From Escherichia phage PGN6866, in the sequence record MT127620: a stretch of 64,000 nucleotides of DNA. One strand, given 5' to 3'. The position numbers and the translations under genes are program-made. This document shows positions 57,714 to 60,076 of this stretch, in pieces (position 1 is the first letter of the stretch; every line of letters begins with the position of its first letter). The notes under the pieces were generated by a model, which was not told where the DNA came from, made no database searches, and saw only the letters and a program-made list of their open reading frames with translations.

Positions 57714-58025
57714 CTATTTAAGTTTGAGGCTAATGTTAAGGTGCATACATGCCCTGTTCTGTACAGCAGCATAACTTCTACCGAGCATGTCAGCCATTCT
57801 CTGAATAGACATGAACCCAGCATTACGGATAAGGAACTGATCTTCTTCTTCAGACCACTTAACTCGGATTGAGGCTCTTGATATTCCGAATTTAGTACAA
57901 GCTGTGTTAACTGCATTCTCCGTTACATTCATAATCTGAGCAACTTCTTGAACCGAGTACTCTTTGATTAGTCTCCGAAGATTTTCAATCTGCATCGGAG
58001 TCCATATAGTTCTTCGTGCTTTCAT
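57714..58025 (-). CDS. Putative transcription regulator with two HTH-like segments
   Basis: YSVQEVAQIMNVTENAV and MSIQRMADMLGRSYAAV resemble sigma region-4 / HTH motifs. Confidence 0.5.
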   Translation of the reverse strand: MKARRTIWTPMQIENLRRLIKEYSVQEVAQIMNVTENAVNTACTKFGISRASIRVKWSEEEDQFLIRNAGFMSIQRMADMLGRSYAAVQNRACMHLNISLKLK

Positions 58026-58053
58026 ACATCCTCCAATTAGCTATTATTCAATT

Positions 58054-58199
58054 TGGTTACAGGTGTAGGATTCGAACCTACGCTCGGACTCCCTAGCCAT
58101 CACCAAAGGAATGCATCCAATGGGCATACGGTCATTCGACCACGGGCGACTGCTTTACCGTAGACTCTGCATTACTGAGTCCCATAAGCTATACCTGTA
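58054..58199 (-). ncRNA. tRNA-like element (147 nt): canonical T-arm, 7-bp acceptor-like closing stem, encoded CCA, ~70 nt extra internal sequence
   Basis: 5' tacaggt pairs with 3' acctgta; T-arm gtagg-ttcgaat-cctac; ends a-cca; no canonical D or anticodon arm found. Confidence 0.3.
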
Positions 58200-58559
58200 A
58201 TTAAAAGGTTGTTCCACATTTACCCTAAAGTTATTGGGGAGTACACTAGCTCTGGGCCACGCTGTAGATATCGGCCTACCTTCCACAGCTAATCAGCTAA
58301 TGTACTCTCCTAATAGTTTATGAATAGGGGGAGGGGACGAATCCTCCCTTATCCTATTAATTAATATTGCATGTAAGACCTAACAATCGGTTGCCTTTGT
58401 AGGAATAAGCGTTATGCTAATCCAGCACTAAACTCCCGCCCCCTTAGTGGGCTGGGTTATTAAAGGGTAACGCCCTTATGGGCTAGTTACATGAATGTTA
58501 GTTTGATAGGAGATCTGAAGTCCTATCTCAAAGGACTCTCGTAAGAATCCTTCACGATA

Positions 58560-58691
58560 TTACTTATTCATCTCTCGTCGGCTATCTCTCCAAGCCAACC
58601 AAGTGTAGGTTTTCAGTTCTTCAAAGTCTTCTGGAGAGAATAGATACTCTTTGAAGGTGTTTCCAAACCACTCTAAAAATTCTTTAGTCAT
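58560..58691 (-). CDS. Small hypothetical protein (43 aa)
   Basis: Hand-translated; TAATG coupling to upstream gene. Confidence 0.3.
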   Translation of the reverse strand: MTKEFLEWFGNTFKEYLFSPEDFEELKTYTWLAWRDSRREMNK

Positions 58692-59578: not shown

Positions 59579-59860
59579 TTACCACTCCTTACCGGTTGTT
59601 GTTACAGAACCACCACACCACTGCGCATCGGATAAGGTTTTAGTCTCCTCATCTACTGCTGCACCATTCAGGCATGAGATACCACTGTAACGCATATCAA
59701 TTTCACCAGAAGGAACCTTCTCGCCCTTATGCCAGCGAGAAACACAAACACCTTCCACTGCTACTGCACACCATCCATCAGGACGGCTCTGTACGCAGCC
59801 TGTAAGGGCTATGCAGACAAGGAAGATACAGATTAAGGATATTACACCACCCCAACTCAT
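59579..59860 (-). CDS. Small lipoprotein (candidate superinfection-exclusion or envelope-targeted protein)
   Basis: Signal peptide with lipobox ALTGC; RBS aggagg. Confidence 0.55.
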   Translation of the reverse strand: MSWGGVISLICIFLVCIALTGCVQSRPDGWCAVAVEGVCVSRWHKGEKVPSGEIDMRYSGISCLNGAAVDEETKTLSDAQWCGGSVTTTGKEW

Positions 59861-60000
59861 AACTACCTCCTATTTGATTTGGTGGACTATCTGGAATCGA
59901 ACCAGAAGCTCACTAAGAAAGTAATTCCCACTGTTATAAAAGCACTTGCCTCAACAGGGATACACTAACTCTGGTGCCGCACCCATACTAGCCCTAAATG

Positions 60001-60076
60001 TGGTGCGCCCTACAGGACTCGAACCTGTAACCAATAGCTTAGAAGGCTACTGCTCTATCCATTGAGCTAAGAGCGC
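60001..60076 (-). tRNA. tRNA-Arg (anticodon UCU), CCA encoded
   Basis: Manual fold: acceptor GCGCTCT/AGGGCGC, D-arm GCTC/GAGC, anticodon stem GTAGC/GCTAT with loop CTTCTAA, T-arm ACAGG-TTCGAGT-CCTGT. Confidence 0.85.

Follow-up and report, generated by a model that had tools for sequence, protein, structure and literature searches.

Escherichia phage PGN6866 (sequence record MT127620; "the window" is the whole 64,000-nt stretch analysed here) carries on its minus strand, at 58054–58199, an element that begins and ends like a tRNA gene. What kind of gene is it? The first-pass annotation, made from the sequence alone, had put forward three answers: a tRNA gene carrying an insertion, a mimic derived from a tRNA, or a structured RNA. 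We found that the first two hold jointly, on the basis of homology to normal-sized phage cloverleaves and of two discrete insertions. By alignment, the element is an expanded member of the phage "tRNA-OTHER" cloverleaf family, and because it has no usable anticodon loop, we read it as a tRNA-derived non-decoding RNA. We consider it very probable that the element is a tRNA-derived structured RNA gene maintained by selection.

The element and its cloverleaf relatives

The element measures 146 nt, from U1 through the A of its encoded CCA, one fewer than first reported. Its ends are exactly as the first-pass annotation described them. The 5′ strand of the acceptor stem, UACAGGU (58199–58193, with a U at nucleotide −1), pairs with ACCUGUA (58064–58058) in a 7-bp closing helix; the T-arm GUAGG-UUCGAAU-CCUAC (58081–58065) is perfect; and the discriminator A73 and encoded CCA (58057–58054) are followed by the trailer AAU (58051–58053). 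The 7-bp acceptor, the UUCGAAU T-loop and the discriminator plus CCA are all those of a canonical tRNA. The element does not score as a complete cloverleaf above a curated threshold (RF00005 or ARAGORN), and it lacks the anticodon arm of a canonical tRNA (5-bp stem, 7-nt loop, U33 and fixed anticodon). Both default ARAGORN and Rfam at its gathering threshold missed it, and tRNA-Arg(tct) was the sole call. When Rfam was run in E-value mode (E up to 10), only the T-arm was matched (tRNA model positions 44–63), at 14.8 bits versus a threshold of 29, and no intron, ribozyme, transfer-messenger RNA (tmRNA) or YrlA match appeared at the element. It is only because of the insertions that the Rfam tRNA model misses it. 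The exact 11-nt T-loop motif GGTTCGAATCC is found at a single place in the 64 kb. Allowing up to one mismatch raises the count to 4, versus 0.66 expected; of the three additional sites, one is at tRNA-Arg and another at a second tRNA-like element.

A partial BLAST match led to a 76-nt element in Vibrio phage 1.088.O, which ARAGORN draws as a cloverleaf with a weak anticodon stem and which scores 26.6 bits with Rfam, just below the tRNA threshold. With hairpin H1 (positions 19–37) and positions 57–106 removed, the window element is 96.7% identical to it over 30 nt of the 5′ body and 92.3% over 26 nt of the 3′ body. Overall, the element without its two insertions is about 95% identical to the 76–78-nt cloverleaves of Vibrio and Pseudoalteromonas phages. 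Further homologues of 76–78 nt are found in many Vibrio phages, in the marine N4-like phages pYD6-A (Pseudoalteromonas), VBP47 and VBP32 (both Vibrio), and in the large Vibrio phages K476 and D479. GenBank labels those of pYD6-A, VBP47 and VBP32 as pseudo "tRNA-OTHER", and those of 1.088.O, K476 and D479 are unannotated. We aligned 11 sequences, comprising copies of the 146-nt element and short cloverleaf relatives. The blocks TAGCTTATG, GGTAAAGCAGTCGCCC, GGAGTCC..GC and GGTTC.A..CC are invariant, and the short forms show two clean gap blocks, one of 20 columns in the D-loop and one of 47 columns at the anticodon-loop position. The element belongs to this family because the first three of these blocks sit between covarying acceptor and T stems, and on this sequence evidence the short cloverleaves are its true homologues. 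The short relatives share with it the invariant body, a 3-nt connector, a mismatched anticodon-like stem and a location at the end of a tRNA cluster. In contrast to the element, they are 76–78 nt long and have a 7-nt loop, with neither the D-loop hairpin nor the 47–50-nt domain; their acceptor and T stems are wholly different in sequence, and only some members encode CCA. Their loop at the anticodon position reads CC-YYG-UG, with no U33 and no constant anticodon.

The alignment also reveals the D-arm that the first-pass annotation could not fold. GCUU (58186–58189) pairs with AAGC (58152–58155), and the arm is hidden by the insertion in the D-loop. The GCUU strand belongs to the invariant block TAGCTTATG shared with the short relatives; on its 5′ side is the 3-nt connector AUA and on its 3′ side AUGG, the equivalent of A14...G18G19. 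The AAGC strand lies within GGTAAAGCAGTCGCCC and pairs in 11 of 11 sequences, and ARAGORN draws the identical D-arm in a Vibrio phage homologue. Insertion 1 (58163–58181, ~20 nt) follows directly on the GG equivalent to G18G19, forms the hairpin H1, GACUC-AGUAAUGCA-GAGUC, and corresponds to the gap at alignment columns 21–40 in the short relatives. Next comes what remains of the anticodon stem: GUCGCCC (58144–58150), invariant in all family members, opposite GGGAGUC (58087–58093), in the invariant block GGAGTCC. The pairs are G-C, U.U, C-G, G.A, C-G, C-G and C-G, and the two mismatches are themselves conserved. Insertion 2 (58094–58143, ~47–50 nt; columns 57–103, a gap in the short relatives) replaces the anticodon loop with a two-hairpin domain, made up of H2, UGGUC-GAAU-GACCG (58129–58142), and H3 (58098–58128). 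The variable loop CGAGC (58082–58086) aligns with CGUGC of the short relatives. The element keeps the upper half and the elbow of a tRNA: the acceptor, A73-CCA, the T-arm, and the D-stem with the GG of the D-loop.

These stems are supported by covariation. In the family alignment, 96.8% of cells pair, versus 34–46% when the partners are slid. Both partners have changed in eleven pairs, namely six of the seven acceptor pairs, three of the five T-stem pairs, one pair of H1 and one of H3. The covariation score of 0.243 compares with 0.066 ± 0.013 in shuffles, and 0 of 500 shuffles reached it. Within the 146-nt copies alone, which are 97% identical, three helices each show an independent compensatory double change (6/137, 20/36 and 84/90): G6-C67 becomes A6-U67 in the acceptor stem of the Klebsiella phage copies, A20-U36 becomes G-C in H1 of FH3, 1-6af and XT32, and A84-U90 becomes G-C in insertion 2 of XT32. 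A fourth change, also in insertion 2, converts U58.G71 to U-A in HS106. Counted over the 146-nt copies and a metagenomic variant, 7 of 9 stem substitutions keep pairing. The first-pass annotation had named a lack of covariance-model support among the results that would count against its reading. This does not apply: a family-specific model gives the whole gene 175.5 bits (E 1e-44), with short members at 58–66 bits and the best ordinary tRNAs (Ile, Thr, Asn) at or below 33.

Between phages of Vibrio, Pseudoalteromonas, Escherichia and Klebsiella the flanking stems have fully diverged, yet no variation is seen in the D-arm, in the mismatched anticodon-like stem or in the variable loop. An invariant body between covarying stems suggests, at the level of sequence, that something interacts with the tRNA body in a sequence-specific manner. 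Among canonical tRNAs, phage tRNA-Ile genes share up to 24 identical bases with the D-arm and 5′ anticodon stem (range 15–24 nt). The closest contain the 15-mer GGTAAAGCAGTCGCC and are a tRNA-Ile(UAU), confirmed by ARAGORN, and a tRNA-Ile(GAU), recognised by sequence reading; a scan of IMG/VR with this 15-mer gave mostly chance matches in coding DNA, and these two were the only informative tRNA-Ile genes. Phage tRNA-Ile genes would be the likeliest ancestors of the element.

Distribution and genomic setting

The window is a Kuravirus (phiEco32/SU10-like, Gordonclarkvirinae), and the 900 bases around the element are 99.6% identical to Shigella phage ShigP1 and 95–99% identical to many phiEco32/SU10-like coliphages. 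Copies 100% identical to the element are present in ShigP1, ev_rybdy3, ev_rybdy8 and KM01, and 8 more phage records have copies of 91–96% identity; it is annotated in 0 of these 12 records. The kuraviruses carrying it are the window, ShigP1, ev_rybdy3, ev_rybdy8, KM01, FH3, 1-6af, 1-6bf and XT18/32/73. Among kuraviruses it is an indel polymorphism, found in 10 Kuravirus records of the 141 phage records that match the locus. In the Klebsiella phages GADU21 and HS106 (N4-like, Schitoviridae, Efbeekayvirus), tRNA-Tyr and tRNA-Ser flank a copy of 92–95% identity. There, similarity extends from the first acceptor base as far as CCAAAU, a punctuation found likewise after the neighbouring tRNAs of these arrays and in the T4 tRNA cluster. 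Pattern scans with the 3′ end across IMG/VR, JGI metagenomes and GTDB genomes added few copies, all phage-like. As a check on host origin, we compared the element and a 124-nt analogue with 5,426 complete E. coli genomes by blastn and found no match. The element is more than a chance resemblance, because a unit with exact tRNA-like boundaries recurs in unrelated phages with compensatory substitutions. It is a discrete unit that moves between two kinds of site, tRNA arrays in N4-like Klebsiella phages and, in some kuraviruses, the early region.

Two observations concern variants of this unit. Genomes of the FH3 type have an extra module of ~115 nt directly upstream of the element, with the sequence ...GUCCGGACGAUAUCUGAGUGACUUUAAAAACAGAUGGAGCCAGGUGGAAUCCCUGGCAA (FH3, L003 ~750–865). 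The GUCCGGACGAUAUCUGAGUGACUUUAAAAACAGAUGGAGCCAGGUGGAAUCCCUGGCAA module is present in kuraviruses FH3, XT32 and 1-6af (L003, L129, L130) and also in N4-like tRNA regions (L006 1293–1348, L007 1625–1680). On sequence, the window looks like a deletion derivative of the FH3-type arrangement that lost the ~115-nt module. In addition, the encoded CCA has become UCA in independent metagenomic copies, both of the 146-nt element (type A; L210/L217) and of the 124-nt analogue (type B; L206/L211). An intact genomic CCA is thus no strict requirement, a finding that fits repair by the CCA-adding enzyme.

Within the window, the element lies in a 534-nt intergenic stretch on the minus strand. Its upstream neighbour is an open reading frame (ORF) of 43 aa at 58560–58691, and downstream is a 103-aa helix-turn-helix protein (57714–58025) that annotators call a "D5-like transcriptional regulator". 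This protein is a helix-turn-helix or sigma-region-4-like regulator; in PHROG it shows only weak similarity to HNH endonucleases, over their N-terminal parts, and these comparisons established no functional link between it and the element RNA. The 3′ end of the element is 28 nt upstream of the ATG of ORF 57714–58025, with the Shine-Dalgarno sequence GGAGGA inside those 28 nt. No sigma-70 promoter or terminator was predicted adjoining the element on the minus strand. Because the locus is homologous to SU10 genes 99–100, and the homologous SU10 genes 69–125 are early genes (PMC4281155), the element falls inside a sigma-70-driven early gene block. The tRNA-Arg gene (anticodon UCU) is at 60001–60076 on the minus strand, and the ~1.8 kb given for its distance in the first-pass annotation is correct. 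A further claim, that the element shares the motif CTAGGGAG with intergenic cassettes, did not survive: the 4 copies compare with 1.47 expected, 7 of 100 shuffles equal that number, no repeat family involves the element, and the other copies resemble ribosome-binding sites.

Two other structured sequences were seen in the same region on the minus strand. At 58324–58357 is a minihelix, AUAGG-AUAA-GGGAGG-AUUCGUCC-CCUCCC-CCUAU, that resembles a T-arm on a short acceptor-like stem without CCA and is conserved in SU10 and FH3. Just upstream of the element, at 58236–58312, is a structured module of ~75 nt with a 12-bp closing stem (GAGUACAUUAGC...GCUAGUGUACUC). It is shared with the tRNA region of the N4-like Klebsiella phage KP8 (L007 1167–1240), where the copy lies inside a region that ARAGORN calls a permuted tmRNA at a relaxed threshold only.

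A proposed accessory RNA and the alternatives

What might such an RNA do? The best explanation overall, which we hold with moderate confidence, is that the element is an accessory, non-decoding tRNA mimic excised by tRNA-processing enzymes. The element would be co-transcribed by the host RNA polymerase within a long polycistronic early transcript. RNase P would cut at U(−1)/U1, and the AU-rich trailer would be removed by 3′ trimming. A U at −1 and a 3′ ACCA suit the preferences of E. coli RNase P. A stable, L-shaped RNA of ~146 nt would then accumulate. It would combine a tRNA elbow and an acceptor-CCA end with two extra domains, one protruding from the D-loop and one from the former anticodon stem. 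Should this RNA be aminoacylated, LeuRS would be the one obvious candidate enzyme, given A73 and the missing anticodon. Through its invariant body and add-on hairpins the RNA may bind, and so titrate, some factor for which tRNA shape is the recognition feature. The most plausible candidates are host defence or toxin enzymes that target tRNAs, or enzymes that modify or process tRNAs. Such titration would give an accessory, host-dependent advantage. The specific proposal of a decoy or sponge is tentative, and we regard it as possible rather than probable. We favour an accessory mimic over a processing signal or a dead relic because the element is non-decoding, is dispensable as judged from natural variants, and has kept both its body and its hairpins.

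Several observations weigh against this explanation. SU10 and most other kuraviruses do without the element. The 146-nt copies are of low diversity (7–8 distinct sequences at 97% identity), and each inserted domain is supported by one compensatory pair. The fold is not unusually stable (minimum free energy z-score −1.63); the minimum free energy structure does close the acceptor stem and T-arm, and a cloverleaf-type model lies 9 kcal/mol above it. Some lineages show decay-like changes: in XT32 the T-loop U55 has become C and the loop-closing pair of H1 is broken, and in a metagenomic copy H1 contains a C.A mismatch and UCA stands at the CCA position. No gene for a tRNA-related enzyme is annotated in the 50 kb of ShigP1 annotation that we inspected.

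The alternative that survives best is a decaying tRNA pseudogene or selfish hitchhiker. The element would be a former tRNA, probably tRNA-Ile-like, that lost its anticodon arm and took in junk insertions; its RNA would be inert, and it would persist through recombination or through gene conversion driven by homing endonucleases in tRNA regions. The pseudo "tRNA-OTHER" label of the short relatives in GenBank fits this history, as do an HNH endonuclease gene directly downstream in pYD6-A and VBP47, the sporadic distribution, the lesions of T-loop, H1 or CCA in XT32 and a metagenomic copy, and the fact that the nearest canonical tRNAs sharing GGTAAAGCAGTCGCC are tRNA-Ile(UAU) and tRNA-Ile(GAU). 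However, compensatory changes preserve the stems both in the tRNA scaffold and in the two insertions, the boundaries of conservation coincide exactly with the RNA ends, and no change is seen in the body, not even in its two non-Watson-Crick pairs, between phages of four host genera. Because the body is invariant while the acceptor and T stems diverge and yet stay complementary, the pattern is not the one expected of a neutral relic, and we consider this explanation unlikely.

The element could instead act in cis as tRNA punctuation, that is, as an RNase P or RNase E signal that cuts the early transcript and releases the RNA as a by-product. Cleavage would split the small upstream ORFs from the mRNA of the helix-turn-helix regulator and leave the latter with a 5′ end ~30 nt before its start codon. 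The setting is suited to this, since the element sits in a polycistronic early region with no promoter or terminator predicted nearby, its 3′ end is 28 nt before the ATG of ORF 57714–58025 with GGAGGA between, and a second tRNA-like element, at 59880–59994, is similarly placed just before ORF 59579–59860. Yet an acceptor/T minihelix would suffice for cleavage, which leaves the invariant body and the maintained inserted domains unexplained; the Klebsiella phage copy lies between tRNA genes, where there is no mRNA to process; and SU10-type kuraviruses express the same downstream gene without the element. Punctuation seems to us quite improbable.

A third possibility is a decoding tRNA that becomes functional once one or two short intervening sequences are removed. 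The intron mode of ARAGORN (-i), a check proposed in the first-pass annotation, did return a call over exactly 58054–58199, a tRNA-Val(UAC) with a 49-nt intron at 37/38. Anticodon-loop insertions of 42–55 nt interrupt four tRNA genes of Vibrio jumbo phage D479 that are in other respects canonical (L226 177–585 and 918–1047), and the hairpin of one insertion has an AGUAAUG loop, the same as that of H1. The comparative data contradict the fold that ARAGORN draws: it disregards the compensatory pair 20/36 and replaces the conserved D-arm with one of two pairs. Under that fold, column 40, which is hypervariable (C, U or A), would also become an anticodon position, so that near-identical copies would read Val, Ile or Leu. 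Removing both insertions yields the short-family cloverleaf with its CC-YYG-UG loop, which again lacks U33 and a constant anticodon. Group I introns span roughly 200 nt or more and have a P1–P9 catalytic core, and the insertions are far below that size; no Rfam ribozyme was matched. To our knowledge, E. coli has no protein-based pathway of tRNA splicing. We judge an intron-containing decoding tRNA very unlikely.

The idea that the element supplies the tRNA-like domain of a phage ribosome-rescue RNA of the tmRNA type is effectively refuted and has a negligible chance of being right: N4-like phages KP8 and PBM-3 do have a tag-like region (ANDDVVLMAA*) ~100 nt upstream of an analogous 124-nt tRNA-like element, and a module of that region is shared with 58236–58312 of the window, but neither the vicinity of our element nor the rest of the window contains a tag-like reading frame, neither ARAGORN (-m) nor Rfam calls a tmRNA even at relaxed thresholds, acceptor pair 3-70 is C-G and not G3.U70, pseudoknots are lacking, and, on reading the alignment, the sole internal ORF starting with GCA gathers non-synonymous changes between copies. 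Two further candidates were ruled out, a group I intron host or ribozyme (insertions of 20 and 47–50 nt, no Rfam match to E = 10) and YrlA or another bacterial Y RNA (termini forming an acceptor stem with CCA, no Rfam YrlA match at the element).

Other tRNA-like elements and known systems

We noted several other over-long or tRNA-like genes. Downstream of tRNA-Arg, and separated from it by 6 nt, is the second tRNA-like element of the window, unannotated and 115 nt long (59880–59994, minus strand). Its sequence is GGGCUAG...UCUGG-UUCGAUU-CCAGA-UAGUCC-A-CCA, after which come AAAU and the site where ribosomes would bind for the next ORF. The acceptor has 6 bp, and its G3.U70, together with A73, makes up the identity set of the alanine/tmRNA type. 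ARAGORN and Rfam missed it, and it is present in 29 kuravirus-like records, including SU10, and annotated in none.

A 124-nt element, which we call type B, occurs in Gamaleyavirus and Kaypoctavirus tRNA regions (L006, L007 and L132, each at 1421–1544), with about 10 metagenomic variants. Its UAC...GUA-A-CCA ends and its T-arm are as in the 146-nt element; its D-stem has the canonical A14/G18G19 spacing, and a hairpin follows the GG. There is a possible pseudoknot (ACCGC/GCGGU with UUGGAG/CUCCAA), and the acceptor shows compensatory changes at positions 3–6. We rejected type B as a member of the family, for the family model gives it 21–24 bits, no better than ordinary tRNAs; on the same ground we regard it as analogous and possibly related. 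The tag-like segment of KP8 (L007 ~1276–1329) and of Gamaleyavirus PBM-3 (L132 ~999–1285) resembles the mRNA part of a tmRNA and reads ...CAUAAAU GCA AAC GAU GAU GUU GUU CUG AUG GCU GCU UAA. It scores 33 bits with the Rfam model tmRNA_permuted (threshold 47, E 6e-5), and ARAGORN calls a permuted tmRNA at -ps90 only. This segment, which lies outside the window, is possibly an unrecognised tmRNA-like gene of N4-like phages.

The insertions in the D479 tRNA genes share a hairpin and a (C)AGCAAYYA motif, that of tRNA-Ile(AAU) lies at 37/38, and all are too short for group I introns. A looser 3′-end scan of viral contigs in IMG/VR returned further over-long genes (L046, L054, L093 and L125, 104 nt; L065, 126 nt; L023 and L044, 90–92 nt) in which the acceptor, D and T arms are normal and the anticodon or variable regions are enlarged or replaced. 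This suggests that expanded tRNA-like genes are not rare in phages, and in practical terms standard annotation overlooks such genes.

A more speculative reading, to which we give little credence, treats the tRNA scaffold as a chassis for delivery and stability and the two hairpin domains as aptamer-like payloads that would capture a host immunity or translation factor. If this were true, the family of the element, the 124-nt Gamaleyavirus/Kaypoctavirus elements, the element at 59880–59994 and T4 rnaC would form a general modular class of "tRNA-chassis" RNAs exchanged horizontally among virulent phages. In a bolder variant, hinted at by the 42–55-nt anticodon-loop insertions of D479, the insertions could be short protein-dependent tRNA introns; we know of none in bacteria or their phages.

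How does the element compare with known systems? Canonical tRNAs (RF00005), and the phage tRNA-Ile genes with GAU or UAU anticodons, share with it the acceptor, D-stem, T-arm, elbow nucleotides and processing-type flanks. Unlike them, the element has no anticodon loop, has two conserved stem mismatches and is 146 nt long. The tRNA-like domain of tmRNA and the YrlA mimics are, similar to the element, non-decoding RNAs in which an acceptor/T-arm or elbow module is reused and fused to other domains. However, tmRNA requires G3.U70, a tag ORF and pseudoknots, none of which the element has, and the termini of YrlA lie in a Ro-binding helix, whereas those of the element form an acceptor-CCA end.

The decoy hypothesis has its conceptual basis in anti-defence tRNAs such as T5 tRNA-Tyr, a phage tRNA that serves as an anti-defence tool against retron Ec78 (bioRxiv 10.1101/2023.03.15.532788). 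These, like the element, are accessory tRNA-shaped RNAs, and their value is tied to host immunity that targets tRNAs. In contrast to the element, which cannot decode and for which an anti-defence role is hypothetical, they decode as replacements.

Since the 1970s, with the species 1 RNA of T4 (rnaC), it has been known that phage tRNA clusters can encode tRNA-like RNAs that do not decode. Like the element, rnaC is an RNA gene of ~140 nt (139 nt) alongside phage tRNA genes, grouped with species 2 RNA (rnaD) as a small stable RNA of the T4 tRNA cluster. Both rnaC and the element have the T-loop core GGUUCGAAUCC, a helix closing the 5′ and 3′ ends, long internal hairpins in place of a normal anticodon arm, and cluster spacing of the CCAAAU type; rnaC lies at the end of its tRNA cluster, and the Klebsiella homologue of the element is also in a tRNA array. 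In contrast to the element, rnaC has no encoded CCA, a weaker acceptor helix and a different internal architecture, and it is transcribed late, while the element lies in an early region. We detected no homology of the element to rnaC or rnaD beyond the 11-nt T-loop motif GGTTCGAATCC. By this sequence comparison, rnaC is the closest known analogue and not a demonstrable homologue. We found no description of the phage tRNA look-alike family in the searchable literature; the family is previously undescribed, while non-decoding stable RNAs of the rnaC/rnaD type are an already known kind.

T4 rnaC is a stable RNA whose function is still unexplained (PMC3014915, PMC9697503). The element offers what rnaC lacks, namely clear homologues of normal tRNA size, and its conservation signature of an invariant body and covarying stems points to a sequence-specific partner on the tRNA body. 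It also comes with natural presence/absence variants in easily grown coliphages (ShigP1, KM01 and FH3 versus SU10), and through these variants the purpose of phage tRNA mimics becomes a directly testable question.

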